A stretch of DNA of 64,000 bases from an uncultured bacterium (GTDB taxonomy: Bacteria > Patescibacteriota > Minisyncoccia > UBA6257 > 2-01-FULL-56-20). Within the stretch, counting starts at the first letter, position 1; the number at the start of each line of letters is the position of its first letter. This document shows, piece by piece, positions 6,001-61,648 of this stretch. The translations under genes and the position numbers were made by a program. Location of the stretch: positions 1 through 64,000 of the forward strand of contig CAWJQC010000004.1 of the NCBI GenBank assembly GCA_963844965.1. The letters are read 5' to 3'. The notes beneath the pieces were generated by a model that was not told where the DNA came from, ran no database searches, and saw nothing but the letters and a program-made list of their open reading frames with translations.

Positions 6001-6213
6001 GGGCGGAGCGGCACGGGCATGGGACACACCACACGCAACATGTAGCATGCAACATGTAACACCAGATAAAAAGAGGAAGGCAAAAAAGGCAGCAGCAAAA
6101 AATAACAAGAAATATGGGTGATACCGCCGGCTATTTTGAAGTTGAGAGGGAGTCATTTTGCCATATACCGCAAAACCAGCGGGACGAACAACCGCTTGTT
6201 CTAATTTTAACAC
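1..6213 (-). CDS. Giant secreted or cell-surface protein (about 2000 aa if contiguous) with N-terminal signal/TM, Ig/fibronectin-like beta domains, a Gly-rich segment and many Kelch-like beta-propeller repeats (motif AVAYNGYIYTxGG); broken into five or more frames (ORFs 4918..6213, 4086..5465, 2615..4561, 1851..2600, 488..1747, unlisted repeats in 1..487); runs off the left edge
   Basis: Consecutive minus-strand ORFs whose real parts abut; frame switches near 5230, 4330, 2670, 1800, 1350 and 480; repeats YNGYIYTIGG/SAVAYNGY in every piece; at 2670 one repeat unit is 1 nt shorter than its neighbours. Confidence 0.6.
2450..3250 (-). repeat. About 160-bp tandem coding repeats (5 units) encoding Kelch-like blades inside the giant surface-protein gene
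   Basis: Near-identical DNA units ...gtatagatgtatccgttataggcgac... recurring every ~160 bp. Confidence 0.8.
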
Positions 6214-6285: not shown

Positions 6286-6675
6286 CTACTTTTTTAAAAA
6301 TTGCCTGCTTATTCTTTTCCCCTCCAGATAAACTATAAAACTGCCTGTTTGATTGGCTAAATCCTCAAGTTTGCCGTTAATCCGGCTGAATTGCGCGCCG
6401 GAAATATAACCGACGGCTAACGCAACGTGAAGTTGGTTCCTTGTTTCGCCCACAGAACCCTTGGCGATTTTTAGGTAACGGATAAATTCATTGTTGTTGT
6501 TCTTTTCAAAACCCTCGGCAATATTGGAACTGATGGAGATAACGGCTCTTCTTATCTGATCGCGCAGACAAAAATCCCTGGAAAATTCTTTCTGGCTGGT
6601 CAAATCGTAAATTTCCTTCGTTATTTCCAAACTCAACTTCCAAATATTCAAATCCTCAAATTTAGTTATTCTCAT
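6286..6675 (-). CDS. Four-helix bundle protein (PF05635/TIGR02436, the 23S rRNA intervening-sequence protein family)
   Basis: 129 aa; typical ...ISISSNIAEGF..., ...KGSVGETRNQL... motifs; flanked by inverted CGAGTTAACGAG repeats (6251-6278 and 6688-6711). Confidence 0.8.
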   Translation of the reverse strand: MRITKFEDLNIWKLSLEITKEIYDLTSQKEFSRDFCLRDQIRRAVISISSNIAEGFEKNNNNEFIRYLKIAKGSVGETRNQLHVALAVGYISGAQFSRINGKLEDLANQTGSFIVYLEGKRISRQFLKK

Positions 6676-7038: not shown

Positions 7039-9033
7039 CTATGGCGACGTTGACGATGCGCCGGCCGCTGAAGATGTATCTGTTGTTGAGGGTACGTCTG
7101 TCGTTGATGATACGTCTGTTGTTGGAGATGCGTCCCCCGTTGAAGACGCAGGTGTCGCAGAAGATACATCTGAAGAACTCGCCGACTCCCCAGTTGAAGA
7201 CACGACGGAAGAACTTGCCGGTTCCTCCGTCGAAGACGCGACGGAGGAACTTGCCGGTTCGGCGGCTTGGGCTTCGTCGTTCACGAAGACGGCCGGTTCG
7301 TTTGACGTTGACGATCCCGACCCGCTCGGCGTTGACGACTCGTTTGATGTTTGCTGCGCCGCGGAAATGCCGGCTGTTGACGTTTGCGTTTCGTAATCCG
7401 TAGACGACTGCTGCCCGGCGTAGGGTCCGGTCCCGCTTCCGCTAACGTTACCCAAGATGCTGCTCGCGACGGATATCGCGGACGGCAACAACGAGTCCCA
7501 AGTCGTTGACGGCAGATCGCCTATGTCTATGTTAATCGTCGGCTCTTCCCCGCCGCCCCAGTACTTTTTCTGGACATTGAGGCCGCTGCCCTCGGGCAAA
7601 GCCGACTGGGGCAGACCGGGAAAAGGATTGGGAGCGTTATTAAAGGACGGCTCGGCTGACCCGGCGGCGGGCGTGGAACTCCCGTTACTTATGGGATACA
7701 GAAATTGCAAATCCGGAGATGCCGTCGCCTCATAGTGGACCTCCATAAGTATTCCGTCCAGATACACGCGCGGCGGCTGTATGGTCGTCGGGATTGACTC
7801 TACCCTTACCTGAATTTTTTCAAGATCGTCCCAGTCCCCCACGGGCAACGAAACGGTAAGATTTCTCCAGTTATCTTCGTTCACCATCGCGAGTTCCGCC
7901 CATGTTTGGCCGTCGGTGCTGTAACTTATTTTCAGAAAATTTTCGTCCGGTGGTGCCGGCTCCACCACGGGCAAGGTGCTTGTAACCAAGGTACCGCTCG
8001 CGATCTCGGGCGTGCCGCTCGCCTCCTCGGTCCCCGTCGCAACCGGTCCGAGTTCAGCACTGAGCGGCGGGCCGATAATCACGGTCTCCGAGGCCTCTGT
8101 TGTTGAAGTCGTCTCTTGCGCCGCTTCCGTGCTTGAAGGATTCGCTCCCGAAACGGAGTTTACGGGTGATTCCGTTCCGCTTCCGGCTGTGCTGCTTGAG
8201 ATATCTTCCGACGAGGCGGGCGCCGCTTGCGATCCGGAATCTCCGTTAGAGCCAGCGGACGCTGAATCCGGCGCTGCTTCCGAGGCAGAAGAATTATCCG
8301 AAGATGCGTCGGAAGATTCTTGGGCGAAAGCGGGACTGATAAAAACGTAGCGCAGGTTCCCGAACCAAAAGGATTGCGTCGTTGATTGTCCCTCTGTGCC
8401 GCTCGGGGCAGGCATGACCGGCACGGTTTGTTCGGTTGACGACGCACCTCCGCCGGCAGGCGAAACAGGTTCTGGCGTGGTTGAAGATGGTACTATCGGA
8501 TTCACGGTCGGAGCCGCAGCGGGCACTTGTCCCTCGGCGCCGCTCGGGGCAGGCGCCACTTCCGCAGCGCTAAACTCCATCTGCCAGACAAAAGTTAGTC
8601 CGACGCCATTTATTTCCCCGCCGGCTTTATAATCCGGCGGGACAAAACCGCCGCAATATATCTGACCGCTCACGGACGGCGCGAGGATCGCGGAGTTGCT
8701 AGCATCAAAAACCGCCGGAGCGCCGACCGAAACCAGATTCTCCGGTTCATCCTGGGCATTTGACGGATTTTGCCATATGCCAAGACAGGTTGAAGGATAA
8801 AAATCGGCTACCTCGGCGCGCGTGGAAATATTCCGCACAAAGAAAAGTAAAGCAACGGCAAATATCACAAGGACAGCCGCCCAAAAAGGGTATCGTTTAT
8901 AAAAGGCCGGCTTCAGATTCACCGTCTGACCGTGATTTCCCAACCATCCGAGCGGCTTCAATCCTTCGCCGTGCGGCGTTGATTTAACATCCAAAAACCG
9001 CCTCTCGTGTTTTTTCCCGTTTGAGGCATTCAT
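7039..9033 (-). CDS. Ser/Thr/Ala/Pro-rich low-complexity surface protein with N-terminal TM anchor
   Basis: 664-aa ORF; TM FWAAVLVIFAVALLFFV near the N-terminus; long S/T/P/A-rich tracts. Confidence 0.55.
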   Translation of the reverse strand: MNASNGKKHERRFLDVKSTPHGEGLKPLGWLGNHGQTVNLKPAFYKRYPFWAAVLVIFAVALLFFVRNISTRAEVADFYPSTCLGIWQNPSNAQDEPENLVSVGAPAVFDASNSAILAPSVSGQIYCGGFVPPDYKAGGEINGVGLTFVWQMEFSAAEVAPAPSGAEGQVPAAAPTVNPIVPSSTTPEPVSPAGGGASSTEQTVPVMPAPSGTEGQSTTQSFWFGNLRYVFISPAFAQESSDASSDNSSASEAAPDSASAGSNGDSGSQAAPASSEDISSSTAGSGTESPVNSVSGANPSSTEAAQETTSTTEASETVIIGPPLSAELGPVATGTEEASGTPEIASGTLVTSTLPVVEPAPPDENFLKISYSTDGQTWAELAMVNEDNWRNLTVSLPVGDWDDLEKIQVRVESIPTTIQPPRVYLDGILMEVHYEATASPDLQFLYPISNGSSTPAAGSAEPSFNNAPNPFPGLPQSALPEGSGLNVQKKYWGGGEEPTINIDIGDLPSTTWDSLLPSAISVASSILGNVSGSGTGPYAGQQSSTDYETQTSTAGISAAQQTSNESSTPSGSGSSTSNEPAVFVNDEAQAAEPASSSVASSTEEPASSSVVSSTGESASSSDVSSATPASSTGDASPTTDVSSTTDVPSTTDTSSAAGASSTSP

Positions 9034-9146
9034 CCCGTTAGAAGCAGGTCGCTGTCAACGCCTGCATCATTATATTTATATTTAAAGTTAATTTTTCTGT
9101 CCCGTCATGTGCCGTACCGTAACGCGACCGCGGCTTCTAACGGGAT
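9032..9146. repeat. Inverted-repeat element of the ATCCCGTTAGA(A/G)(G/A)C family (copy A); about 115 bp, no ORF; right arm abuts the ATG of gene 7039..9033
   Basis: atcccgttagaagc at 9032-9045 and gcttctaacgggat at 9133-9146, with an extended imperfect stem (aggtcgc/gcgacc). Confidence 0.7.
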
Positions 9147-9312
9147 TCATCACCCTTATTTTAACATTATTGCCGCAAAAAATTGTCCCCTCCTCTGGGG
9201 ATTAACGAAAACGGCCGGTTAGCGAATTGGTGTATTAACGAATTAACGTATTAACGAATTGTTTTTAATGCGTTAATTCGTTAATCCGTTAATTAACAAT
9301 AATCCGATAAAA

Positions 9313-9881
9313 CTAGAGTTTTTTGTACTCAATAATTATCTCCTGTTTATCTTTCAGGACCAGATTCTCATATTCGGTGCTAGGTTTGCCGTCAACGGTC
9401 ATCGTGAGTTCATGATCGGCGTCGCGATAATAATCCATTATCCAGTCCTTGGAAAATCTCTCGCCCCAGACGGCGAAGAAATCCCCCAACGTGAACGGCG
9501 TATTATCATAGGGCTCTACGTCAATCGTTCCGCTCGCGTCGTCCGTGTGGATTATCCGCTCGCAATCCGCGGTGAGGCCAATGCCGGCCGGTATCGTGAC
9601 GCTCTTGCCGTTAACGATGATCGCGAGATGCGGATAGATGCGGTATTGCTGCGGAGGCGGATTCAAGAAACTCGCGCATGGCACTTCGTGGATGGCAGAG
9701 ACAGCCGTATTAGAGCTTGAAGCGGCGTTCGGCGTGCTGCTTTCTTCGGTCTCTACGGAAGGAGCCGTGCCGAAACTGGCATGCGCGAAAGTCCGCCCAA
9801 CCCCATGACCACGGTGAGACCCATGATGACCACGAGAACTATTGTGAGCGTTCTTTTGCCGCTGCCGCTTTTCTTTTTCAT
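9313..9881 (-). CDS. Hypothetical protein with N-terminal TM segment (MKKKSGSGKRTLTIVLVVIMGLTVV...); frame-shifted about 80 codons in
   Basis: ATG at 9881 overlaps the GIY-YIG stop as ATGA; downstream ORF 9313..9684 is in another frame. Confidence 0.4.
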
Positions 9882-10135
9882 CCCGTTAGAGACAGGAAAC
9901 GCTTTAACCTATTCTTGAGGTAGCGCTTACCCATGCCAGACTTTAAATATTTTTCTCTCGACTTTGCATCTTCCTCATTAAGACATGCTTCGTAATATAT
10001 CAGACGATACGGTCCATTATAGCTGGTATATTTCGATTTCCTTGCATTGTGGTCATTAAAGCGTTTCCGTAAATCCGAGGTATATCCTGTGTACCAACGT
10101 CTATTCTTATTTTCTAATACGTATACGTAGTACAT
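9878..10135 (-). CDS. GIY-YIG nuclease family protein (85 aa)
   Basis: N-terminal YYVYVLEN...RWYTGYTSDLRKRFNDHN is a GIY-YIG motif; gene lies between inverted repeats atcccgttagagac (9880-9893) and gtctctaacgggat (10146-10159). Confidence 0.8.
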   Translation of the reverse strand: MYYVYVLENKNRRWYTGYTSDLRKRFNDHNARKSKYTSYNGPYRLIYYEACLNEEDAKSREKYLKSGMGKRYLKNRLKRFLSLTG

Positions 10136-10199
10136 GAAATGGGTGGTCTCTAACGGGATTCATTGCAAATAAAAAAACTGACCATTATAATTATTTCGT

Positions 10200-10640
10200 A
10201 TTCTATAACATAATCGCAAGCGGGTCTAATAACACCTTGCCAGGTCGCCTGCCTGCCGGTTTACCCGCCGAAGGAGGACAGGCAGGTCTAACGGCCCACG
10301 CACCAAAACAAAGTTTGGTACGGGGTAAATAGGACATCGGCCGGCGCGAAGTCCCGCATAAAGCTGCGGGGTCGTCTAACTTGCCCCGCCGCACTTTAAA
10401 AAATCAAAAATAAATTTCTTGCCAGTGCTGCCGGGTCGTCTAATGGTAGGACATCGGCCTTTGGAGCCGAGTATCTTGGTCCGACTCCAAGCCCGGCAGC
10501 ACTGGCCGGAAAAGTGCGGCGGGGTGAAGTAGGACACGGGCCTTTGGAGCCCGGTATGAAGGTTCGATTCCTTCCCCCTCAGCACGAGCCACCGCAGTAT
10601 AATCCGACCCTACTCGCCATAGGTCGAGGAAGGCCGGATA
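10200..10640 (+). repeat. Cluster of tRNA-like repeats and pseudo-tRNAs; GTAGGACA(T/C)(C/G)GGCC occurs three times, gtcgtctaa twice, plus a P1/P2 palindrome
   Basis: Recurrent tRNA D-arm and anticodon-arm-like segments; only one unit folds into a complete cloverleaf. Confidence 0.5.
10429..10499 (+). tRNA. tRNA-Gln (anticodon TTG), no encoded CCA
   Basis: Acceptor tgccggg/cccggca, 3-bp D stem gtc/gac, anticodon stem tcggc/gccga with loop ctttgga, T arm cttgg-tccgact-ccaag; unusual C55 in the T loop. Confidence 0.5.
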
Positions 10641-12486: not shown

Positions 12487-14040
12487 TTAAGCTCCGCGTC
12501 CGGCATTTTCCCTAACTCCTTGATCCTTTTCTTCCAGCTTCTCTTTTATGTTTCGCTTCGGGTCGTCCAGAACTTCTTCAAGTAAAACCGACAAGATGAA
12601 CCCCACTCGCGGGCCGGGCGGAATGTCCAAAATCTTCATCACGTCGTCGCCTTTAACTTTGAGCATCTTCGGCGAGATCGGGTCGTGCTTCACTTTTTCT
12701 ATCATGAACAAAAGATGGCGCAGCTTATATGGGAAAGCTTTCGGGACGCCGGAACCGATGCGGTCGGCCTCGCGCACTTTGAGCAAGTCGGGAACGTTCT
12801 CCGGGCCGACGCGCGCCAAAAACCTCCGTACGCCTGCTTCCGTCACTTCTCCCACGTTGTAGTAGAAAAGATGGTAGCGCACGAGGTGCACGACTTTTTC
12901 CGCGAAATCCTTTGAGAAACGCAGGCGGTCCAGAGCTTTCGCCGCCATTTTCGCGCCGATATATTCATGCTGATAAAAAGTTGAGTCGGGCCCCTCGCCT
13001 CTTTTTGACTTGGGCTTGCCGAGGTCGTGCAAAAGCGAAGCCAGCCGCACTTCAAGCGAATAATTTTGCTTTACGGCGTAATCAAGCGCGCGGATGTTGT
13101 GCTCAAAAACCGAATAGATGTGATGCTTGTTCTGGCCGACGCCGAGCCCCTCCCGCAGTTCCGGCAGGACATACTGGAGCAAATTCAATTCTTCCAAAAG
13201 CAGAATTCCCTGCGCGGCGCGCGGCGCCATTATTATCTTCTCAAACTCGTCGCGGATCCGCTCTTTGGCGACGGCGTCCAGCAGCGGGCTCAGTTTTTCT
13301 ATCGCGCGGCGCGTTCCCAAATCGATCTGCCAGCCAGAGGCTGGTCCGCCTCCGGCGGAAAAATCAACCCCTCGACTTTGCTCGGGGTTGGCTCGTTCAT
13401 CGAACGAGCCAAGTTCCACGGCGAACCGCACGGCGCGCATGAGACGGAGCGCGTCTTCGTTGAATCGCTCTTCCGGCAGGCCCACGGTGCGGATAATTTT
13501 ATCTTTCAAATCTTTCCGGCCGTCGTACGGATCAATGATTCCCCCAGCTGTCCACCTGACAAGACCCATTGCGATCGCGTTTATCGTAAAATCGCGCCGC
13601 GACAGGTCTTCGTCAATCGTTTTCGCGAAGGTGATGTAATCGGGATGCCGCTTGTCGGTATATTTCCCCTCTTCCCGGAAGGTCGTCACCTCTACCACTC
13701 TTGTGGTCGCAGATACTCGCGGACTTAACGCCGAATCACGCTGAAAACTTTCTGCGTTATTCTGCGTACTGTCTGCGTCCTTCCGCGGTGCGAGTTTAAC
13801 GAGCACAGTGCCGAAATCGTTCTCGTAAACCGTTGACGGATTTTCCGGCGTGCCGCCGTGGAAATTCAGAAACAATTCCTGCACTTTATCGGGCGTCGCG
13901 TTAGTCGCCACATCCCAATCTTTCGGTTCCCGCCCGAGCAAAAGGTCACGCACGCAGCCGCCGACAAGATAGGCCTCGTAACCCTTTTCGCCAAGCAACG
14001 CGCCGATTCTCTTTTACTTCTCCGGGAATGTCGTGTTTCG
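12487..14040 (-). CDS. cca: CCA-adding tRNA nucleotidyltransferase with C-terminal HD domain; N-terminus disrupted by a 1-nt indel in an AAAA run near 13995
   Basis: GYEAYLVGGCVRDLLLGREPKDWDVAT; upstream frame MERKTKHDIPGEVK continues the canonical N-terminus; carries an in-frame palindromic insertion (FSAGGGPASGWQ) at 13331-13368. Confidence 0.85.
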
Positions 14041-17181: not shown

Positions 17182-19416
17182 CTACTTCTCCAATTTCAGC
17201 GATAAAATTTTGGACGTCCCGTCCTCATTCAATGTCACACCATAGAGTATGTCCGCGACTTCCATCGTGGCGCGGTTGTGCGTCACGATGACGAACTGCG
17301 TGCGTTTGGCAAACTCCTTGAGCATTTCGGCGAACCGCCTCGCGTTCCGTTCGTCAAGCGCGGCGTCAATCTCATCCAAAACCAGGAACGGCGGCGGGCT
17401 CACGGAGATCAAGGCAAAGAGCGCGGCGATTCCCACCAAACTTCTCTCGCCGCCGGAGAGCATCTCCAGGGAATTCACCTTCTTTCTCGGCAGGCGCAAT
17501 TCAATCTCCACGCCGCCTTCTTCCTCCGGCTCTTCTTCCGCTCCTCCTGCGGTTTTGTTCTCGTCGGGAACTTCCTGCGCCTCTTCATCCGTCCCCTCTT
17601 GACTCGTGACGCTTGACGCCTGACGCTTCTCTATCTTCAACTTCGCGTGCCCGCCGCCGAACATCACTTCAAAAAACTTGCCGAACTCCTCGTTTATACG
17701 GACGAGCGCTCCGCCAAATTCTTCCTTTATCTTTTCGCTTAGGTCCTTGATTAATTTCCTCAAATCAACGACCGCTTCCTCCAAATCCGCGGATTCTTTT
17801 TTCAGGAATTCGTACCGGGTTTCCGTATCGTGGGCTTCCCTCATCAGCGCTTCGTCTATTTCACCGATGCTCGCCAGGTCGCCACGTAATTTGAAAATTC
17901 TGCGCTCAATCTCTGGTAAATCTGTCTGAGCAACTATTTCTCCGCCAGAGGCGGATCCGCCTTCGGCGGAAAATTCGCGCGAATTACGCCCGGCTTGCGT
18001 TATCTGCCTCTCCAACTCCTCGCGCCTCAGCTCCAGACGTTCCTTTTCAAACAGAATTTCGCGATTTCGCGCCTCCCACTTCTCTATCTTATCCTTTACG
18101 GCCTCCACTCCCGAAACCGCCGTTTTAAAGGCGTGATAAAATTCCTCCTGATTTTTCTCCAACGCTTTCTCCTTATTTTTGAGATCAATCAATTCTTTCT
18201 CAAGCGCTTCCAGGTCGCGGTTAACTTTTTCAAATTGCGATTCTAAAGCGGGATTCGGCTCGGGCTTCGCCTTTGCCGCGCCGCTTTCTTTTATCTTTCC
18301 GCCTAAAATCTCTTCAATTTCCTCTATTGCGCTCCGTATCGCTTCCTGCATCTCAATCATGTCGCCGCGGAGGCCGTTCTCAAGCGTGCTCTTTATCCTT
18401 TTCACGAGTTCAAGTAATTTCGCGGAACTTGCGGCCTGCCCCGAATCGCCGCGGGGAGCGGCCGCCTGCGACATTTCTATCTGCGCCTCGATCCGTCCGA
18501 GTTCCTTCTGCAGCTGGCCCTTTTTGCCGAGCAGCTCCTGCGTCTGCTCTTTTATCTTTTCAATATCCCTTCTTCCTTCGGGCTGGCTCGCTTCCACTTT
18601 CGCCTGTTCCGCCTCCGCGGCTTTTTTCTCTCTTTCAAGAACCGCGAGCTCGCCGCGGTTCGCACCCGACTTTTTCTCCACATCGGCAAGACCCGTTCTG
18701 ATATCTTTAAGCTGGCTGCCGAAAAATTGATTCTCCAGATTTAGCAATTCTTCCGCGTACTCGCCTCGTTTTTCCCAGCGCGAGGTCTGGCGTTTCAACG
18801 ACCGGAGATGCGGCAGAATTTCCTCAACCAACGCTTTAACTTTATCCAAATTTATCTGGCTGTTTTTGAGCCGCCGCTCGGCGTCCGTTTTTTTAAGCTG
18901 ATATTCCCGAAGCCCGAGCACCTCTTCTATCATTTCCCGCCTCTCTTTCGGCGAAACGCGGATAAAAACGTCGCTGTTGCCTTGCGTCACGACAACAAGC
19001 CCGCGCGAGCCGAGCCGCGCTTTGGCGAAGAAATCAACGAGGTCGCGGAGTAGAATTTCCGACTTGTTCAAAAAGTAGCGGCTCGTGCCGTCGCGCCGGA
19101 TTTCGCGCATGACGGAAACCTCGGCAAAATCCACCGGGAAAAAATTATTGGCATTCTCAAAGTGCAAACTCGCCTGCGCCTGTCCCAGGCGCGGGCGCTT
19201 CGCCGTGCCCGCGAAAATCAAGTCGTCAATTCTGCCGCCGCGCAAACTTTTTGCGTCGCGCTCGCCGAGTAACCAGCGAATGGCGTCAACGACATTGGAC
19301 TTGCCGGAACCATTCGGCCCGACTATCGCCGTAATCCCTCCCGGAAACTCCAAAACCGTCTTCCCGGCGAAGGACTTGAAACCGTTTAATTCTAAGCGTT
19401 TGAGAAAGTGGGGCAT
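17182..19416 (-). CDS. smc: Chromosome segregation protein SMC (short form, 744 aa)
   Basis: Walker A GPNGSGKSN, coiled coils, signature LSGGERSLVGIAALFAL, Walker B VLDEIDAALDE; in-frame palindromic insertion FSAEGGSASGGE at 17942-17973. Confidence 0.85.
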   Translation of the reverse strand: MPHFLKRLELNGFKSFAGKTVLEFPGGITAIVGPNGSGKSNVVDAIRWLLGERDAKSLRGGRIDDLIFAGTAKRPRLGQAQASLHFENANNFFPVDFAEVSVMREIRRDGTSRYFLNKSEILLRDLVDFFAKARLGSRGLVVVTQGNSDVFIRVSPKERREMIEEVLGLREYQLKKTDAERRLKNSQINLDKVKALVEEILPHLRSLKRQTSRWEKRGEYAEELLNLENQFFGSQLKDIRTGLADVEKKSGANRGELAVLEREKKAAEAEQAKVEASQPEGRRDIEKIKEQTQELLGKKGQLQKELGRIEAQIEMSQAAAPRGDSGQAASSAKLLELVKRIKSTLENGLRGDMIEMQEAIRSAIEEIEEILGGKIKESGAAKAKPEPNPALESQFEKVNRDLEALEKELIDLKNKEKALEKNQEEFYHAFKTAVSGVEAVKDKIEKWEARNREILFEKERLELRREELERQITQAGRNSREFSAEGGSASGGEIVAQTDLPEIERRIFKLRGDLASIGEIDEALMREAHDTETRYEFLKKESADLEEAVVDLRKLIKDLSEKIKEEFGGALVRINEEFGKFFEVMFGGGHAKLKIEKRQASSVTSQEGTDEEAQEVPDENKTAGGAEEEPEEEGGVEIELRLPRKKVNSLEMLSGGERSLVGIAALFALISVSPPPFLVLDEIDAALDERNARRFAEMLKEFAKRTQFVIVTHNRATMEVADILYGVTLNEDGTSKILSLKLEK

Positions 19417-20108: not shown

Positions 20109-20203
20109 TCACATGCGCAAATTTCTAATTTCTAATATCTAATTTCTAAACCGCGAACGGTATCCGAAATTGGAAATTAGGAATCAGGAATTTACAAGAT
20201 TTT

Positions 20204-31762: not shown

Positions 31763-32340
31763 TTGCGTGGGCAGTCGTGAATTTTACGCGGAAATGAACT
31801 TCCGCGCCGATCTGCGTTATGTCTGCGCTTGTCTGCGGTTGAACTTCGCCCGATATCTGAAAAAGAGCTTTTTAGTTGTCCCAACCTATCATGAAACACG
31901 CAACCTGAAACATGGAACATTACAAAATGTTTCATGCTTCATGTTTTATACTTCGTGCTTCACGTCGACTAACTATTTGTTAATAGTTTAATTGATCCAC
32001 GGGCAGCTTCCGCTACTCGTGCCTTGTTACGACTTATCCCATGTCACCGAGCTTAAGCTAAATCGCCTGAGGCGATCTTCACCTACTCCCGGCTCCCTTG
32101 GATTGACGGGCAGTGAGTACAGGACTCGAGAACGTATTCACCGCAACATAGCTGATTTGCGATTACTAGCGATTCCAGCTTCATGAGGGCAGGTTGCAGC
32201 CCTCAATCCGAACTGAGACCGGGTTTGATGGGATTAGCTCCGCCTTGCGACTTCGCAACCCATTGTCCCGGCCATTGTAGCACGAGTGTAGCCCAGGGCA
32301 TCAGAGGGCCATGCTGATTTGACGTCATCCCCTCCTTCCT

Positions 32341-32439
32341 CCCCGCTCAGAAACCACGAGACATGAGACACACGTCACGACTCACAAATTTATTGTGCAT
32401 CGTGCTACGTGTATCGTGCATCATGAACTCTGAGCGGGG
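32341..32439 (-). other. 16S intervening sequence 1: about 100-nt hairpin insertion closed by an 11-bp stem (ccccgctcaga/tctgagcgggg) in the helix 39/40 region
   Basis: Sequence between the conserved 1100 and 1190 blocks replaced by a self-complementary insert. Confidence 0.7.
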
Positions 32440-32511
32440 CAGTTTCGCGTGACACTTGTAACACACGATAGGGGTTGCGCTCGTTACCCCACTTAAGGGA
32501 ACACTTCAAAG

Positions 32512-32542
<31 letters not shown>

Positions 32543-32669
32543 ACGTGACGTCCTTGAGAGAGGGCCCGCCTTTCGGCAAGCTTTCGTCACGAATTTCAAG
32601 CCCTGGTAAGGTTCCTCGCTTACTGTCGAATTAAACCTCATGCTCCACCGCTTGTGCGAGTCCCCGTCT

Positions 32670-32701
<32 letters not shown>

Positions 32702-33161
32702 TCCCAGGCGGCCGACTTAACGCGTTAGCTCCGCCACTCCGAGGGTCGATACTCGAAACAGCAAGTCGGCATCGTTTAGGGCGTGGACTACAAGGGTATC
32801 TAATCCTTTTTGCTCCCCACGCTTTCGCGTCTCAGAGTCAGGAAGGTCCCAGTGCCATGCCTTCGCCTTTGGTGTTCCGCACGATATCAACGGATTTCAC
32901 CCCTACACCGTGCGTTCCAGGCACCTCTAACCTCCTCTAGTTTCGCCGTATCTCCTGCACTTCCACCGTTAGGCGGTGGGATTTAACAGAAGACGCACGA
33001 AACCTCCTACACGCTCTTTACGCCCAATAAATCCGGATAACGCTCGAGGTCTACGTATTACCGCGGGTGCTGGCACGTAGTTACCAACCTCTTTCCGTAT
33101 GGTACGGTCACCCAGCACTTTTGGAACGAACTTTTCTAATTTGCTCAAATTTTTGGAGGTA

Positions 33162-33190
33162 TTGACAACAGCAATCACTTCTGCTATAAT
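33162..33190 (+). promoter_or_regulatory. Perfect consensus sigma70 promoter (TTGACA-17-TATAAT) inside IVS-2, oriented antisense to the rRNA
   Basis: ttgacaacagcaatcacttctgctataat. Confidence 0.6.
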
Positions 33191-33269
33191 GCCCATAGCA
33201 CATTGGGAGACCAACGTGCCGCACGTCGGGCCTCAGCCCTTGTGCAATTCCCAAAAGGAGAATTGATTT

Positions 33270-33461
33270 ATGCGTGCCAAATTCCCGTCACAAGTCACGG
33301 ATCGAATACTGGAAGCAGCCAAGAAAGAGTACTCCTTCCAGATCAATCATGCGGAATTAGGGCGGCGGCTGTTTACGCGCAAGCACTGTGGCACGAGAAT
33401 GGTTCAGGTAAAAGTCTTTCTGCAAGGAAGACAACAACCTGCCATACTCGGAAAACAATAA
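33270..33461 (+). CDS. 63-aa ORF inside 16S IVS-2, antisense to the rRNA (MRAKFPSQVTDRILEAAKKEYSFQINHAELGRRLFTRKHCGTRMVQVKVFLQGRQQPAILGKQ); has its own promoter, SD and terminator
   Basis: SD aaaaggagaa 6 nt before ATG; intrinsic terminator ctgccaccagaagctttccggtggcag plus TTTTTT at 33543-33575. Confidence 0.45.
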   Translation: MRAKFPSQVTDRILEAAKKEYSFQINHAELGRRLFTRKHCGTRMVQVKVFLQGRQQPAILGKQ

Positions 33462-33542
33462 CCACAGATGCACGGACGCCGCAGTATGCCCCGTTTGTTT
33501 GCTGGCATATGTCATGACTAACGACTAGCTGCCACCTTTCTA

Positions 33543-33575
33543 CTGCCACCAGAAGCTTTCCGGTGGCAGTTTTTT
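33543..33575 (+). terminator. Rho-independent terminator of the IVS-2 mini-gene
   Basis: 11-bp GC-rich stem followed by a T6 run. Confidence 0.6.
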
Positions 33576-34434
33576 AAATCCAAAAATTTGAGCAAATTAG
33601 TTTTCCCGCCAAAAGTGCTGGGTTCTTCCCATACTACCGCAGTTTACAACCCGAAGGCCTTCTTCCTGCACGCGGCGTCGCTCGATCAGGCTTTCGCCCA
33701 TTGTCGAATATTCTCGGCTACTGCCACCCGTAGGTGTACGAACCGTTTCTCAGTTTCGTCGTTGGGGGTCAGGCTCTCACCTCCCCTACCGGTCATAGCC
33801 TTGGTAGGCCGTTACCCTGCCAACTAGCTGATCGGACCTAGGCCGCTCTTGGAGCGTCTTGCGACTTTGGATGCGAATGGCTTTCGCCCCCGCATCATCA
33901 TCAGGAATTACCCCGCCTTTCGGCGAGCTGTGCCCGTCTCCAAGGTACGTTACCAAGGTGTTACTAACTCGTTCGCCGCTCACTATTTTCCTTGCGGAAA
34001 ATAGTTCGCTCAACTTGCATGCCTTATCCACGCCGCCAGCGTTCATCCTGGACCAGGATCAAATCCTCAGTAAAAATCGCGCATTTATTCAATACGCGAG
34101 ATTGTGCGCCATGCATGACGCCCAAACTCGCGCATCTCACTCGTGCGTGAGTTCATACCGCGATTGATTTATTGATCTCGGTTTATTTCAATTCCAAACC
34201 GAAAAATGAATCTTATTGGGACAACTAAAAAACTCTTTTTTATTTACTTTTCTCATATTAATTTTTCAATCTGCAGTCGGCGCAGTCCTTTACCCCGCAC
34301 ATTACCTTCGGTAATAACGGGGCGAGCAACAAAACATCCCCCCTACACATTCTAAACCTCAGAAGAATGTGTAGGGCGGATGTCTTTAGACACACCATAA
34401 TATTGAGATATCAAACCTATCCGTTTTCCATATT

Positions 34435-40794: not shown

Positions 40795-42252
40795 CTATGC
40801 CTTTGACTTTTTAATTCCCAATCCTAACTCATTCAATTGTTTTTTGTCCACATCGCTCGGCGAACCCATCATCGGGTCATAGCCCTCGCCAGTTTTCGGG
40901 AATGCAATAACTTCGCGGATGTTCGGCTCGTTTTGCAAAACAGTAACCAGGCGGTCAAGTCCCCAGGCGATGCCGCCATGCGGCGGCGCGCCGAAACTCA
41001 GCGCCTCAAGCATGTGCCCGAACTTCGCCTGTATCTCCGTGTCACTGTAGCCCATAATACTAAACACTGCCTTGAGTGCTTCGGGCCTGTGATTGCGCAT
41101 ACTGCCGCCGCCGATCTCCAGTCCGTTCAAAACAACATCGTATTGGCTTGTCAAAATTCCGGCAATATTTTTCTGCGCCAGCAAATCATCCATAAACTCC
41201 GGCTTCGGCGCGGAAAATGGGTTGTGCGTAAAAGTCCATTTGGTTTTCTCTCCGCCAGAGGCGGATCCCTGCCCGCCGGCAGGCGCGGCGCCTTCGGCGG
41301 AAAAAAACGGAAAATCAATTATCCAGCAAAAAGCCAAAAGGTTCGGGTCGTTCTTATCCTTCCGTAAATCCGGCCGGTCGGTTTTATATTTTTCAGCAAC
41401 ATCTTTATAGCTCAGACGCGGGAAAGGAATTTCCTGAATTTTTTTGTCCGGATAGAGGGTCTCCACTATCTTTATCAGAAGTTCTTCGTTTATCGCCATC
41501 ACATCCTCGCGTTCCACGAAGCTCATCTCCAGATCAAGTTGCGTGAATTCCGGCTGCCTGTCTCCTCTTGTGTCCTCGTCGCGGAAACAACGGGCAATCT
41601 GGAAATATTTTTCCAATCCGCCGACCATCAAAAGCTGTTTATACTGCTGCGGCGACTGCGGCAAAGCGTAAAACTGTCCTTTGAAAATGCGTGACGGCAC
41701 AAGATAATCGCGTGCGCCTTCCGGCGTGGATTTTGACAGCACCGGCGTTTCTATTTCCAAAAATCCTTTCCCATCCAGAAAATCTCGTATTAACTTGATT
41801 ATTCTGTGCCGCGAAATCAAGTTTTTCTGCAAGCGCGCGCGCCGCAAATCCAAATATCTGTATTTCAGGCGGGTTTCCTCGTTGATCTCGTAACCGTCGG
41901 CGTCAACGGAAATCGGCGTGGCTTCCGAGCGATTCAGGATTTCCAGTTCGGTCGCGCTGACTTCATAGTGACCGGTCGGCAACTTGTCGTTCACCATCGC
42001 CGGCGGCCGCTTCTTGACCTCGCCTTTCACTCGCACGACATATTCCAGCCGCAGGTCGCCGGCGCCTGATAATGATGGCCCTCCGCCAGAGGCGGATCCG
42101 CCTTCGGCGGAAAAAACGACCTGCGCTAAACCGCTCCGGTCGCGGAGGTCAATAAAAACCAATTTCCCGTGGTCGCGCCGCGCGTGAACCCAACCGCAAA
42201 GCTCAACTTCTTTGCCTTCGTTTTTTATGATTTCTGATACAGATACCCGCAT
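40795..42252 (-). CDS. aspS: Aspartate--tRNA ligase, archaeal/eukaryal-type short form (no GAD domain)
   Basis: Class II aaRS motifs, N-terminal OB fold; 485 aa; two in-frame palindromic insertions (42083-42114 and 41262-41304). Confidence 0.85.
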   Translation of the reverse strand: MRVSVSEIIKNEGKEVELCGWVHARRDHGKLVFIDLRDRSGLAQVVFSAEGGSASGGGPSLSGAGDLRLEYVVRVKGEVKKRPPAMVNDKLPTGHYEVSATELEILNRSEATPISVDADGYEINEETRLKYRYLDLRRARLQKNLISRHRIIKLIRDFLDGKGFLEIETPVLSKSTPEGARDYLVPSRIFKGQFYALPQSPQQYKQLLMVGGLEKYFQIARCFRDEDTRGDRQPEFTQLDLEMSFVEREDVMAINEELLIKIVETLYPDKKIQEIPFPRLSYKDVAEKYKTDRPDLRKDKNDPNLLAFCWIIDFPFFSAEGAAPAGGQGSASGGEKTKWTFTHNPFSAPKPEFMDDLLAQKNIAGILTSQYDVVLNGLEIGGGSMRNHRPEALKAVFSIMGYSDTEIQAKFGHMLEALSFGAPPHGGIAWGLDRLVTVLQNEPNIREVIAFPKTGEGYDPMMGSPSDVDKKQLNELGLGIKKSKA

Positions 42253-49515: not shown

Positions 49516-49635
49516 GGAATCAGAAAGTAGAAGGTAGAAAATAGAATTTAGAACATAGAACTGAGGGCGCGGAGAGAACAATCCTCAAAATTCCACACAG
49601 GAAATCTTAGCAGAAAACCGGTTTTCGCGCAAATC

Positions 49636-56117: not shown

Positions 56118-56206
56118 TTTTAGAAAATAGTAAGTAGAAATTAGAAAATAGAATTTTGTCGGGATTTTCGGCGAAGTTCCGATTTCTATTTTCTATTTAC
56201 TATTTT
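56118..56206. terminator. AT-rich long inverted repeat (tagaaaatagtaagtagaaattagaaaatagaattt / tttctattttctatttactattttctactttcta) between convergent dnaE and the nucleotidyltransferase gene; likely bidirectional terminator
   Basis: Member of a TAGAAA(A)TAGAA family also at 20110-20190, 49500-49560 and 59750-59840. Confidence 0.5.
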
Positions 56207-56614
56207 CTACTTTCTATCTACGATATTGCTTTTATATCTATGCGGCTCGTGCGCCCTCAAAACAACCATCTTCGGCCGCCAACGAAATTCCTTGCGGTGA
56301 TTTTTCAGGTCCTCTTTGAGCGCCACCTGGTCGTAACCCAAAGCGATAACGTCGGGCTTGTGCTTTTTCACGACCTCGTAAACGCCGAGTTCAGCGTCGC
56401 CGAGCGCGACCTCGTCAACAAGAGGTTCTTTTCGCAGGTCGTCAATTCTCCGCGCGAGATTTCTCTGCGGCAGACGGCCCTTCAAGTACTCAGCCGTATG
56501 GTCCTGCGCGACTGCGACGAGCAAATAATGGCCGTATTCCCTGGCTTGTTTAAAAAATTGACGGTGACCTTCATGGATGCCGTCAAAAACGCCGAAGACC
56601 AGAACTTTTTTCAT
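56207..56614 (-). CDS. Cytidylyltransferase-family nucleotidyltransferase (HxGH; RibL/TagD-like)
   Basis: VLVFGVFDGIHEGH motif; 135 aa. Confidence 0.65.
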   Translation of the reverse strand: MKKVLVFGVFDGIHEGHRQFFKQAREYGHYLLVAVAQDHTAEYLKGRLPQRNLARRIDDLRKEPLVDEVALGDAELGVYEVVKKHKPDVIALGYDQVALKEDLKNHRKEFRWRPKMVVLRAHEPHRYKSNIVDRK

Positions 56615-56676
56615 GTATCACGCAACATGAAACATGTAGCAGTTAAAACGGTGCTACATGTTTCGTGTTATATGTT

Positions 56677-58125
56677 TCATTTTTTCGGACGCATCAGCGG
56701 GAAAATCACGGTCTCGCGCACGGGCTTGTCCATCAAAATCGCGAATAGGCGCTCTGACATGCCGAAACCGGCGGCGGGCGGCATACCGTACTCCATAGCT
56801 TCCAAGTAATCCTCGTCCAGCCGCTGGGCTTCATTGTCCCCTTCCGCACGCAACTTCATCTGCTCCTCAAACCGCGCGCGCTGGTCAAGGGGGTCATTCA
56901 GTTCCGAAAAACCATTTCCCACTTCCGTGCCACAGGCCACTACCTGAAACCGTTCCGCGACTTTCGGATTTTTCCGACTGCGTTTGGCCAAGGGTACTAA
57001 TTCAACCGGTGGGTCAACCAAAAAGCACGGCTCAATCAGTTTGGGTCGGATGGCTTTCTTATATATCAGATCAATAAGGCGTCCTCTGCCGAGATTTTCC
57101 TCCGGCTGCAGGCCGAAAGAACGTGCCGTGATAAAAAGCTCTTTGCGCGTGGCAACCGTCGGGTCAAGCCCGGCAGCTTTCTTAAATTCCTCCACGTAAT
57201 TCACTTTCGGCCACCTCTTCCCCCAGTTTATTTTTTTGCCGCCGAAGGTCACGGTAAAACCGCCGCAGGTTTTTTTGACAACGGCTTTGTACATTTTTTC
57301 CACGGACGCCATCATGTCGTTGTAATCGGCGTAAGCCCAGTAGTATTCCATGTGCGTGTAGTCCTGCAGATGTTCCTTGTCTATGCCTTCGTTGCGGAAC
57401 ACGCGGCCAATCTCAAAGACCCTTTCAAAACCGGCGACGAGAAGTTTTTTCAAAGACAGTTCCATGGATATGCGCAGGTAGAAGTCAACATCCAGCGCAT
57501 TGTGATGCGTTTTGAACGGCTCGGCGTCCGCGCCTCCGGGAACGCTCTCCAGAACGGGCGTTTCCACTTCCAAAAATCCTTCGCCCTTAAGATAATTGCG
57601 GATAGTTTCCCAAAAAACGGCTTTCTTCTCAAAAAGCACCTTTGCTTCCGGATTCATAAGCAAATCCAGGTATCGTTTCCGCAGGCGCGTTTCAATGTCT
57701 TCCAGCCCGTACCACTCGCTCGGCAACGGACGCAGGGATTTCGCCAGTATTTTAAGCTCTTTAACTTCCAGACTTTCCTCTCCTTTTTTCGTCTTGAACA
57801 ACGAGCCACCCGCGTAAATAAAATCGCCGATGTCCAAAACGGATTTCCAAAATTCAAAATCCGGCAAATTGTCTTTCTTCAAAACCAGCTGCAGCTTGCC
57901 CGTGGCGTCTGCCAGATCAAGAAACACGATATTCCCCTGGTCGCGCGAGCCCAAAATGCGCCCGACCAAAGAAATCTTCTTCCGGGATTTCGCCAGCGCG
58001 TTGAATCTTTTCCGCGCCTCGGCAATCGCAAGCGTCCGCTTCGCCTCCGGCGGATACGGGTCGAGCTTCACTTTCTTTATTTCTTCCAGCTTCTTCAACC
58101 GCTCTTTGATAAGATCGTCAAGCAT
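56677..58125 (-). CDS. lysS: Lysine--tRNA ligase (class II)
   Basis: 482 aa; N-terminal OB fold and class II motifs 1-3. Confidence 0.9.
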   Translation of the reverse strand: MLDDLIKERLKKLEEIKKVKLDPYPPEAKRTLAIAEARKRFNALAKSRKKISLVGRILGSRDQGNIVFLDLADATGKLQLVLKKDNLPDFEFWKSVLDIGDFIYAGGSLFKTKKGEESLEVKELKILAKSLRPLPSEWYGLEDIETRLRKRYLDLLMNPEAKVLFEKKAVFWETIRNYLKGEGFLEVETPVLESVPGGADAEPFKTHHNALDVDFYLRISMELSLKKLLVAGFERVFEIGRVFRNEGIDKEHLQDYTHMEYYWAYADYNDMMASVEKMYKAVVKKTCGGFTVTFGGKKINWGKRWPKVNYVEEFKKAAGLDPTVATRKELFITARSFGLQPEENLGRGRLIDLIYKKAIRPKLIEPCFLVDPPVELVPLAKRSRKNPKVAERFQVVACGTEVGNGFSELNDPLDQRARFEEQMKLRAEGDNEAQRLDEDYLEAMEYGMPPAAGFGMSERLFAILMDKPVRETVIFPLMRPKK

Positions 58126-59749: not shown

Positions 59750-59884
59750 TGAAATAGAAAATAGAATTTAGAAAGTAGAAAGTAGTAGGTAGTAGGAAGA
59801 AAAAACTGAAAATTTCTAAATTCTAATTTCTGATTTCTAAACAATTAAAATTATAACACAAAAGAAACAGCTGAAATTCCACGC

Positions 59885-60646
59885 TCAAATCTTGGTTAGT
59901 ATTCTTGTTCCCTGTTCTGTTATAGCAACCGTATGTTCCCAATGAGCGGATGGTGAGCCGTCGGCGGTGATAAAACTATCGTCGGCGAGCTGCTTTGTCG
60001 CCCCGGAGCCCATCGCTACCATCGGCTCAATCGCGAGCACCATTCCTGGCACAAGTTCTTCGCCTTCGCCTTTGCGGCCAAAATTCAGAACTTGCGGCTC
60101 TTCGTGAAGGTCGCGGCCGATACCGTGACCCGTGAGCGAACGAACGACCGAGAAACCATTTTTTGTCACGAACTTTTCAATAGCACAACCGATGTCCCCC
60201 ACCATTTTTCCAGGCCTCGCTTCCGCAATACCAATATTAAGTGCTTCTCTCGTGACGTGAATTAATTTCTGTGCTTCACGGCCGATAGCGCCAACGGGAA
60301 CGGTAATCGCCGAATCGGAATAAAATCCCTTGTATTTTAGTCCCAAATCCAATTTAAGAAGATCGCCGCTCTTCAGCGCGTAATCCGACGGCAACCCGTG
60401 CACGACAACGTCGTTCAGGGATGCGCAAATCGTAAATGGATATGGCTTTTCGGAGCCCGCTGGTCGGTAACCCAAAAACGCCGGCTCGGCTCCAGATTCT
60501 TTTATCAGCTTCTTCGCCAATTTGTCCAAAAAAATTGTGGTGACGCCCGCGCGGACCTCTTTCCTAAGCGCCTCAACAACCGAAGCGAGCCGCTGCCCAG
60601 CCTCGGCCATGATTTCAACCTCAGCGGGAGTTTTTATGGTGGTCAT
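59885..60646 (-). CDS. map: Methionine aminopeptidase, type I
   Basis: 253 aa; pita-bread fold metal ligands. Confidence 0.9.
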   Translation of the reverse strand: MTTIKTPAEVEIMAEAGQRLASVVEALRKEVRAGVTTIFLDKLAKKLIKESGAEPAFLGYRPAGSEKPYPFTICASLNDVVVHGLPSDYALKSGDLLKLDLGLKYKGFYSDSAITVPVGAIGREAQKLIHVTREALNIGIAEARPGKMVGDIGCAIEKFVTKNGFSVVRSLTGHGIGRDLHEEPQVLNFGRKGEGEELVPGMVLAIEPMVAMGSGATKQLADDSFITADGSPSAHWEHTVAITEQGTRILTKI

Positions 60647-61401
60647 TACGAAAACAAAACCCGATAAAAGTCCACTGAGCCGGCGGAGGCCTTCCTCACG
60701 GTGGTTTTTCTGCCGATGCCGCGCGTTCGCAGCATAATCGTACCAATTATCTTGTTGAGCACTTTATATGGCGCGGCTCTGGCGTTAATAACTTCCAGGT
60801 TGTAACCCAATTTATCCAAAATATTGAAAACCGGCTCGGTGCGATTCTTATACTCCTTAAGACGTACCTTGATCACCTCCGGTTTATCCAATGAACGTCT
60901 GTAAAAATTTCCGCCGCACACGGGGCAATACCTCGGCTTAACCTTGGGGTAATATTTCGCAAGCAGCGTGTAGCCGCAGGATTTACACACCATGCGGGCG
61001 CCGTTTCTCTTGATTGAATATTCTGCCGGCAGCCGCAACTCAAAAATAAATATATTCTCCCGGCCATAAAGCCGATCCAAAATCGGCATAAGCCGCTCGC
61101 CTTCGTAAACGGTGCGCGGCGAGCCGCTGAAAGCGACGCCGAATCCCGCCTGCGCGATCTTCGTGACCGCGTTCGCCACCTCGCGCGAAACAAAGCTCGG
61201 TGTCATCAAAATCCCGCCATCAAAAAGTTTCCGCTCGCGCTTTACAATTTTTTCTTTCTGCCGCGCCTGGTCGTGCACAACCGATTCCAAAAATTTTCCC
61301 GTGTCAAAATGAATCAGGTTCAGTTTTTGCGCCAATAAATTCGCCTGTGTTCCCTTACCCGAACCCGGCGGCCCGTAAATTATAATGGCGATTTTTTTCA
61401 T
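60646..61401 (-). CDS. adk: Adenylate kinase (long form with zinc-ribbon LID)
   Basis: IIIYGPPGSGKGTQ P-loop, CKSCG...CPVCGG LID; the adk-map gene order is typical of the end of the ribosomal protein operon. Confidence 0.9.
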   Translation of the reverse strand: MKKIAIIIYGPPGSGKGTQANLLAQKLNLIHFDTGKFLESVVHDQARQKEKIVKRERKLFDGGILMTPSFVSREVANAVTKIAQAGFGVAFSGSPRTVYEGERLMPILDRLYGRENIFIFELRLPAEYSIKRNGARMVCKSCGYTLLAKYYPKVKPRYCPVCGGNFYRRSLDKPEVIKVRLKEYKNRTEPVFNILDKLGYNLEVINARAAPYKVLNKIIGTIMLRTRGIGRKTTVRKASAGSVDFYRVLFS

Positions 61402-61526
61402 CCCGTTAGAGACAGGGAACGCTTCGCCAGTTAGACGAACCGCTATCTGTCATTATTATTTTTGATAAATGAAGTTGGTTTGTGTAAATTAAGCGTCCCC
61501 GTAGCGAAGCGGTCTCTAACGGGATT
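61400..61526. repeat. Inverted-repeat element of the ATCCCGTTAGAGAC family (copy C), about 127 bp, abutting the adk ATG
   Basis: atcccgttagagac at 61400-61413 and gtctctaacgggat at 61513-61526, with extended stem gcttcgc/gcgaagc. Confidence 0.7.
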
Positions 61527-61648
61527 CATGCACTTGAAACAATTCTAACACAAGATGCCCCTGCAATTTAAGGGGGATTTATGCACAGCAAATCGGCACA
61601 CGCCATGTCGCGACAAACAAAAACCCCGATTCTCATCGGGGATGCAAA

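Follow-up and report, generated by a model that had tools for sequence, protein, structure and literature searches.

Three palindromic copies and their host genes

The window analysed here is a stretch of 64,000 nucleotides (contig CAWJQC010000004.1, positions 1 to 64,000) from an uncultured bacterium of the Patescibacteriota. Our subject is a small palindromic element that lies in it at three loci and encloses, in one of them, a gene for a GIY-YIG nuclease. Analysis of the inverted repeats revealed three pairs of 14-bp arms, ATCCCGTTAGARRC / GYYTCTAACGGGAT, each adjoining the ATG with which a gene on the minus strand starts, and the six arms were found where an earlier reading of this DNA (the original prediction) had placed them. 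On the minus strand all three loci share the layout 5′-ATGAA-T-CCCGTTAGARRC ... GYYTCTAACGGG-ATGAA-3′ (in short, ATGAA-T-CCCG...CGGG-ATGAA). The 5-bp ATGAA direct repeat that flanks each copy is new with respect to that prediction. Its second ATGAA is the start of the minus-strand gene, that is, of 7039..9033, of the 9313..9881 gene and of adk (60646..61401), respectively. The features are as follows.

9029..9150, minus strand: short gene-less copy 1; arms 9032-9045 and 9133-9146 (AGAAGC variant); ATGAA at 9029-9033 and 9146-9150
7039..9033, minus strand: host gene of copy 1, coding for a 664-aa Ser/Thr/Pro-rich protein; no Pfam match
9877..10163, minus strand: nuclease-bearing, presumed autonomous copy 2, including both ATGAA repeats (9877-9881, host side; 10159-10163, duplicated)
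9880..9893, no strand: arm of copy 2 adjoining the host gene, ATCCCGTTAGAGAC on the plus strand; arm columns invariant in 62 homologous elements
10146..10159, no strand: distal arm of copy 2, GTCTCTAACGGGAT on the plus strand; the minus strand, ATGAATCCCGTTAGAGAC, translates as MNPVRD
9878..10135, minus strand: gene of the 85-aa single-domain GIY-YIG nuclease; its TGA overlaps the host ATG at 9881..9879
9895..9907, no strand: inner helix, 3′ half on the minus strand, TTAAAGCGTTTCC, codons LKRFL; 13 pairs, 7 changed on both sides, 96% of cells paired
10056..10068, no strand: inner helix, 5′ half on the minus strand, GGAAACGCTTTAA, codons RKRFN; partner of 9895..9907
9313..9881, minus strand: host gene of copy 2, coding for a membrane-anchored protein, frameshifted (42-aa and 123-aa open reading frames)
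61397..61529, minus strand: short gene-less copy 3; arms 61400-61413 and 61512-61525; ATGAA at 61397-61401 and 61525-61529
60646..61401, minus strand: adk (adenylate kinase), host gene of copy 3

The 12-mer motif CCCGTTAGARRC has seven matches in the 64 kb, against 0.94 expected, and this number was reached in none of 100 shuffles. No further arm copies above chance level were found in the window, even with up to 3 mismatches, and its gene-less copies amount to two per 64 kb. The arms of copy 1 read AGAAGC/GCTTCT and those of copies 2 and 3 AGAGAC/GTCTCT, so that the change is compensated in both arms. The arm variant of copy 1 was also found in L084, L007, L019 and L042 (L numbers are our labels for sequences compared with the window).

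Copy 1 is located at the start codon of the gene 7039..9033 and folds as single-stranded DNA (ssDNA) with −22.5 kcal/mol (z −4.0). Copy 3 is located at the adk start codon, has kept AAGCGTTYCCT of the nuclease gene's 3′ end and folds with −27.5 kcal/mol (z −5.9). The adk product has a 100% identical database entry by homology search. The right arm had been described as holding the host ATG; the A of the ATG does belong to the 14-bp arm, but the rest of the codon stands at the foot of the stem. In copy 2 the last nuclease codons (..SLTG*) lie in this arm (9880..9893) on the minus strand, and the A of the host ATG comes from it as well. The 85-aa gene itself, with a TGA overlapping the next ATG (ATGA), had been predicted correctly and matches PF01541.

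Two other statements did not hold. The short copies had been described as lacking open reading frames (ORFs), but they contain leader ORFs of 20 and 28 codons that begin at the duplicated ATG. The transmembrane protein 9313..9881 had been taken as one ORF, but it is split into 42 aa (9753..9881) and 123 aa (9313..9684, in another frame). Since its homologues are single ORFs of 135–205 aa, mostly 160–190, and the same sequence is present in the independent Logan assembly L001, we regard this gene as frameshifted. The genome represented by the window has a 2090-nt 16S gene, RNase P and tRNAs, and its proteins have relatives under the labels Patescibacteria or Liptonbacteria.

A degenerate extra arm, TTCCCGTTTGAGGC, with 3 mismatches, was seen at 9014-9027 within the first codons of 7039..9033 (MNASNGKK). 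Perhaps an earlier copy was taken into the coding sequence here and left this remnant; chance is the other possibility. The arm sequence also resembles a tRNA D-arm (TCTAACGG).

The nuclease, its arms and their conserved structure

The 85-aa protein matches PF01541 with 55.5 bits (cut-off 22.6, E 7.4e-15) over residues 1–68, and its catalytic residues Y5, Y15, R25, H29, E61 and N75 are invariant across 30 homologues. Its AlphaFold model (pLDDT 87.5) has the GIY-YIG fold, a three-stranded sheet with flanking helices. The protein belongs to the GIY-YIG superfamily by profile, catalytic residues and fold alike; a search against NCBIfam gave no match. The best Foldseek matches were the UPF0213 structures 1zg2 (BH0048) and 1ywl (EF2693), followed by Slx1 6seh (TM 0.65, rmsd 2.0); UPF0213 proteins and the Slx1 nuclease domain are its best matches in sequence and structure. 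Slx1 is a structure-selective nuclease on branched DNA. Unlike the 85-aa protein, which is one domain without a DNA-binding extension, Slx1 has an additional RING domain and the partner Slx4, and neither UPF0213 nor Slx1 has a described association with repeats such as that of the present nuclease. Database relatives numbered 6417 at E ≤ 1e-10. A tblastn search of plasmids with the nuclease gave one weak match, and a scan of 2.9 million viral contigs for the gene-bearing form gave a single locus; phages are therefore not its usual carrier.

Nearly all sampled relatives end in KRFLSLTG*, and those whose N-terminus was called longer start with MNPVRD. The two arms, translated, give these two peptides. 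Exact arm cores bracket the nuclease gene in about 60 of 80 genome loci, whose proteins are 64–82% identical to the present one. According to the labels of the metagenome-assembled genomes (MAGs), these loci represent many Patescibacteria classes, as well as Omnitrophota, Planctomycetota, Desulfobacterota, Nitrospirota and a single Woesearchaeote. When 62 elements were aligned, no arm base varied, not even at synonymous sites, while the proteins are 64–87% identical. The pairing of arms and nuclease is a family-wide feature, not a local oddity. The GIY-YIG nuclease is the only protein linked to the arms: no DDE, serine/tyrosine recombinase or HUH protein was found with them, the downstream genes being unrelated between loci and the upstream neighbours not having been compared systematically.

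A second type of flank, YTTNAC before and GTNAA after the element, was found mostly outside the Patescibacteria and not at ORF starts. One such locus, L031 8981-10503 (MAG labelled Nitrospirota), has its nuclease gene between complete separate hairpins, four within 1.5 kb. There the gene lacks its own right arm, the next hairpin's flank and arm standing in its place (..TGTCTTTAC followed by CCCGTTAGAG). The third flank position outside the arms is complementary in 0% and 5% of the elements of the two flank classes, versus 25% by chance; such a conserved mismatch, at the foot of the stem, might serve in recognition.

We then consider the structure. It consists of an outer 14-bp helix made by the arms and an inner 13-bp helix, GGAAACGCTTTAA/TTAAAGCGTTTCC, with one base between them on the 3′ side. 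Over these 27 pairs the 62-element alignment has 1674 pair cells, of which 97.7% are standard pairs. Eleven pairs have changed on both sides, for example A-T 37 / G-C 18, C-G 44 / T-A 13 and T-A 36 / C-G 11 / G-C 8, and such compensatory changes occur in the outer and the inner helix. In four of five measures the observed values were reached by none of 500 shuffles, and in the fifth, the count of pairs changed on both sides, by one of 500. When the partners were slid by 1–3 columns, pairing fell to 27–48%.

RNA structure is expected to tolerate G.U far better than A.C. Intermediates of a single transition were balanced in the same pair cells (24 G.T versus 17 A.C), with no strand or RNA bias. 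This suggests, most simply, that the structural constraint acts on DNA foldable on either strand rather than on RNA. The stems of the short copies are bulged, which makes a gapless wobble count uninformative beyond position 12. Fold z-scores were −3.2 to −6.2 overall and −4.0 to −6.2 for the window copies as ssDNA, and the full copy 2 folds with both helices.

A search of the elements against Rfam 15 gave no match at the gathering score or at E ≤ 1, and a known structured RNA was rejected for want of any covariance-model match. Two chance-level matches to Rfam microRNA families lie on an unrelated neighbouring hairpin, not on the elements. An integron attC site or gene cassette was likewise considered and rejected. 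The outer core sites of attC are ordered RYYYAAC ... GTTRRRY. The order here is reversed on either strand (..GTTAGAG...CTCTAAC..).

Insertion at start codons and evidence for mobility

Comparison with relatives, which the original prediction had proposed, revealed empty sites for two of the three host genes. The adk start is uninterrupted (...ATGAAAAAAAT...) in L093, L083, L082 and L086, whose adk identities are 86%, 82%, 80% and 71%, and L082 has the same AAA_28-adk-map synteny. It is filled at the identical point in the window and in a relative at 83% (L084/L085), with different variants, which gives four empty and two filled sites. For the host gene of copy 2 the orthologous sites are empty in four relatives (L087-L090). 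In L088 the empty site reads ..TAATGCAA directly followed by ATGAAAAAGAAAAGC, and the filled site of the window reads ..TATTTGCA, ATGAAT, the element and then ATGAAAAAGAAAAGC. Besides the element, the filled site has gained a second ATGAA and a single T, the pairing partner of the host ATG's A.

The duplication is not peculiar to ATGAA. A metagenome scan, conditioned on the flanks only by AT beside each arm, yielded 139 further short copies. Their flank pairs were ATGAAT/ATGAA in 71 cases and ATGGAT/ATGGA in 14, with one crossed pair, and ATGTA, ATGCG, ATTTA and ATTGA were also found repeated on both sides. At the genome loci ATGGA and ATGAG are likewise repeated on both sides. The 5-bp duplicate is host sequence: it tracks the second codon of the host and is not a fixed end of the element.

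The short copies retain sequence of the nuclease gene's 3′ end beside the right arm (..AAGCGTTYCCTR-TCTCTAACGGG), and several keep a small hairpin where the inner helix stood. Pairs of them are 80–97% identical over their full length at unrelated genes, with unrelated flanks, which indicates that short copies have spread as units. One contig carries four copies in 12 kb and another a tandem pair; related contigs have up to four gene-less copies per 12–20 kb. In tandem arrangements of a full and a short copy, the 5-bp repeat is common to both.

This bears on the possibility that the gene is a free-standing homing endonuclease gene which moves only between homologous alleles, the short copies being remnants decayed in place. 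GIY-YIG nucleases include homing enzymes, and orthologous sites are filled in different lineages (adk; L007/L063). However, the 85-aa protein lacks a DNA-binding domain of the C-terminal I-TevI/Seg type, short copies of 80–97% identity spread as units at unrelated genes, and target duplications are not a product of homing. Nor was there an intron or intein context, Rfam detected no intron RNA, and the viral contigs held one match in 2.9 million. We consider homing very improbable. Empty sites, duplications and dispersed short copies argue that such systems are, or recently were, mobile.

The location of the insertions is also distinctive. At the genome loci, an ORF of 50 codons or more begins directly after 58 of 101 arm pairs (44 enclosing the nuclease gene, 14 short), and the same holds for 114 of the 139 short copies from metagenomes. 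Upstream of the duplicated ATG the reading frame stays open over a median of only 9 codons, so these sites are true gene starts and not internal methionines. Among the 57 host proteins there are only three related pairs. Their functions are housekeeping ones: aminoacyl-tRNA synthetases, pilus/secretion proteins, CTP synthase, ATP synthase, topoisomerase, GAPDH, RRF, DnaJ and adk. By a crude annotation, ATGAA/ATGGA sites in the window number 44 in intergenic DNA versus about 10 at gene starts, while about 81 of 85 short copies of the ATGAA/ATGGA type lie at ORF starts. Given the 44 intergenic against about 10 start sites, the target sequence together with the loss of intragenic insertions is insufficient to account for the location.

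A Shine-Dalgarno-like motif upstream of the duplicated ATG is rare (6–10 of 48 sites, from L002-L084 and the window). A TATAAT-like hexamer ending 5–13 nt upstream was found at 13 of 45 sites, versus 1 of 45 in a control interval. Many of the hosts may thus have a short leader or none. Literature searches for the arm sequence and for palindromic insertions at start codons in bacteria of the candidate phyla radiation (CPR) gave nothing relevant, and exact insertion of this element at the start codons of essential genes appears to be undescribed as far as this search shows.

A position at the start codon might instead point to a cis-regulatory mRNA hairpin that hides or gates the ATG, with the nuclease gene as a secondary passenger; the original prediction had offered a conserved regulatory hairpin, invaded by a nuclease gene, as its alternative. 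In each copy of the Patescibacteria type a stable stem does have the host ATG at its foot, a leader ORF lies upstream whose translation would open that stem, and few sites have the Shine-Dalgarno-like motif. Against this, the hairpin is absent from the orthologues of close relatives, 57 unrelated genes carry the same unit, which in other phyla also occupies sites outside genes, arms and nuclease gene go together in the whole family, Rfam gave no match, and G.U is not in excess over A.C in the 1674 pair cells. We therefore set this alternative aside as improbable.

The proposed element and related systems

We propose, with a probability of roughly 0.7, that each of the three loci holds one copy of a small palindromic mobile element whose family is widespread. 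The proposal builds on direct observations: the structure and its conservation, the insertion polymorphism, the target duplication, the dispersed short copies and the start-codon location. It agrees with the first of the two readings in the original prediction, an autonomous GIY-YIG element with derivatives like MITEs (miniature transposable elements with inverted repeats). The arms travel with the gene across phyla, empty sites and a target duplication are found, and the short copies keep the nuclease 3′ end and recur at unrelated genes. Clearly, the motif is not confined to the three sites, and the gene is not an ancestral one without flanking arms.

In this proposal the full form is a hairpin-forming unit of about 275 bp, in which two arms of 14–16 bp enclose the 85-aa nuclease gene and a 13-bp helix forms from coding sequence. 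The short forms, of 30–130 bp, would be internally deleted and non-autonomous, having kept the arms and part of the gene's 3′ end. In Patescibacteria the element lies exactly at the host start codon, with duplication of 5 bp (ATGNN, usually ATGAA) and addition of one stem-extending base. By analogy with Ssn, the palindrome folded as ssDNA may be the substrate that the nuclease recognises and cuts alongside. Because a GIY-YIG hydrolase cannot itself join DNA, repair or replication functions of the host would be needed and would complete the movement.

Insertion at essential genes would be tolerated if translation starts from the duplicated ATG, where the host's own initiation signals are kept, as the reading frames suggest. 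In its three reading frames the right arm offers, in turn, a TGA that overlaps the host ATG, a TAA lying 4 nt upstream of this ATG, and an open passage into the host ORF. Because translation from the duplicated ATG has only these three outcomes, the host ORF would be either re-initiated or fused. Full copies that are in frame would express the nuclease by the same route; of the 44 full copies at start codons, 17 have a nuclease ORF that continues the frame of the duplicated ATG and then measures 93–95 aa. Termination and re-initiation at ATGA is a reasonable reading of how the host gene might stay translated. A bolder form of the proposal holds that the Ssn-like GIY-YIG ssDNA nuclease powers a true mobile element, a start-codon hairpin transposon that hijacks the initiation signals of the host for its own nuclease and hands translation back through the ATGA stop-start overlap; these sequences would then be the first evidence of such an element. 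In this form, targeting might exploit ssDNA at the promoters of leaderless or short-leader genes, given the −10-like boxes at 13 of 45 sites and the scarcity of Shine-Dalgarno motifs. We regard this form as possible, but tentative.

Several points weigh against the element proposed here. The duplication varies in length, being 5 bp and sometimes 4, which is untidy for a classical transposase, and the left ATG is missing in a few start-codon copies. Copy number is modest, with three in 64 kb and nothing else in the window. Orthologous sites filled with different variants could reflect recurrent insertion, but also an old insertion with turnover by recombination between copies. The translational coupling is deduced from reading frames only, and movement by the nuclease is put forward as a candidate mechanism. 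We know of no strand-transfer chemistry for a hydrolytic GIY-YIG nuclease. Membership of the nuclease in the Ssn clade is putative; its nearest solved relatives are UPF0213 proteins and Slx1. As to the differently filled sites, L007 and L063 (at two orthologous genes) and the window and L084 (at adk) have elements at the same start codons with different interiors and arm variants.

The closest described system is Ssn. Its proteins, described by Chenal et al. (Nat Commun 2025, PMC11893778; cd10448), are about 94 aa long and consist of a single GIY-YIG domain. The hairpin repeat cognate to them (NTS/SRM) is bound only in the form of ssDNA, with the cut a few nucleotides 5′ of the repeat, and cleavage also works with a stem assembled from two separate strands (PMC11893778). 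The ssn genes are flanked by NTS/SRM repeats, of which there are hundreds of copies; the authors noted that NTS-ssnA-NTS looks like an insertion sequence and compared it with RAYT/REP (PMC11893778).

The present nuclease is similar to SsnA of Neisseria meningitidis in being a single-domain GIY-YIG protein of about 90 aa with the same catalytic spacing (Y5, Y15 and E61, versus Y6, Y17 and E64). Its gene, too, is bracketed by hairpin-forming repeats, with gene-less copies elsewhere, and the two stems resemble each other at their foot (TCAT-(T)CCCG ... CGGGA-(A)T). L031 even has the published hairpin-gene-hairpin layout. Unlike in Ssn, where each flank is its own hairpin of 20–50 nt, the two arms here pair across the gene, and a second helix lies within the coding sequence. 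The start-codon position, the 5-bp duplication and the documented empty sites have no counterpart in what is reported for Ssn. Copies here number tens, those of the Ssn repeats hundreds. The published SRM pattern, HGTCWY..YYVSBRH..WNVSBRG..RNCYNB, has no match in the window (0.26 expected in shuffles). The present hosts are Patescibacteria and other uncultivated phyla, and PMC11893778 mentions neither Patescibacteria nor start codons.

The likeness to Ssn also raises the possibility that this is a domesticated system, in which hairpin marks at gene starts are maintained by the host and the nuclease cuts incoming or replicating ssDNA without being selfish or mobile at present. An example of such a role would be the modulation of natural transformation, as by NTS/SsnA in Neisseria. 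The structure is conserved at the DNA level, and copies adjoin essential genes. Patescibacteria generally encode DNA-uptake machinery, which likewise counts for a domesticated role. The Ssn/NTS system provides a precedent (PMC11893778). On the other side, the sites differ among close relatives, with clean empty alleles and target duplications, and the host genes are unrelated and share no functional theme. We consider domestication unlikely, though less so than the homing or regulatory explanations, and it is compatible with a mobile element in that it concerns present function and not origin.

Similarities were also found with REP/REPIN-RAYT systems (repetitive extragenic palindromes with a tyrosine transposase). 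There, too, a single-copy nuclease gene is flanked by palindromes on which its product presumably acts, and short non-autonomous copies are dispersed. Recognition of hairpins in ssDNA is a further likeness to the mechanism proposed here. But the enclosed gene codes for a GIY-YIG hydrolase and not for an IS200/IS605-type Y1 (HUH) transposase, so that covalent strand transfer is not expected and a REP/RAYT (REPIN) identity was rejected. REPs are moreover extragenic, typically downstream of genes and not on start codons, and the present element has a target duplication.

Bacterial MITEs, such as the Correia elements of Neisseria, RUP and the Rickettsia palindromic elements, share with the present family the terminal inverted repeats, a short target duplication, internally deleted, non-autonomous copies and insertion near or within genes without destroying them. 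The terminal arms of 14–16 bp, the 5-bp duplication and the presence or absence at orthologous sites are all features by which MITEs are recognised. Unlike MITEs, these elements have no DDE or other known transposase as a partner, the start codon itself is the insertion point, and their stems show compensatory evolution.

If this proposal is right, it would carry the partnership of nuclease and hairpin, known since 2025 from Ssn, over to Patescibacteria and further uncultivated phyla, with a type of repeat that is invisible to the published SRM pattern. The empty sites, target duplications and dispersed non-autonomous copies would add the first clear signatures of mobility for an Ssn-like system. 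Insertion at start codons raises the question of how the site is chosen and how the host gene continues to be expressed. The nuclease and its hairpin are also a candidate pair for ssDNA tools. Recurrent annotation artefacts, namely the 94-aa ‘MNPVRD’ extensions and doubtful start codons, would find an explanation as well.

Other repeats and features of the window

A separate class of repeats lies between genes, where hairpins are formed from tandem units of about 7 nt (TTAACGN, AGAAAGT/AGAAAAT and CATG/AACA types).

9222-9297, 20120-20150, 49522-49563, 56119-56227, 59756-59847, 6019-6062, 31890-31920, 56605-56680, 32341-32439: tandem-unit intergenic hairpins

A GC-rich double hairpin, CTCCGCCAGAGGCGGATCCGCCTTCGGCGGAAAA, is repeated at 13329-13362, 17940-17973, 41250-41304 and 42081-42114, and two of its copies are 100% identical at a distance of 24 kb. 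Fragments resembling the 5′ half of a tRNA (GGTCTAA.., GTCGTCTAAC..) were found at 10200-10400 and 10515-10582 beside tRNA-Gln (10429-10500), and near this tRNA there is a weak second tRNA-like match (Rfam 32.8 bits, not called by ARAGORN). The 16S rRNA gene (31985-34074, minus strand) spans 2090 nt against a model of 1533 positions, which indicates about 550 nt of insertion(s). At 6286-6675 (minus strand) lies a gene for a 23S rRNA intervening-sequence protein (four-helix bundle, PF05635), a gene type that is often suspected to be selfish.

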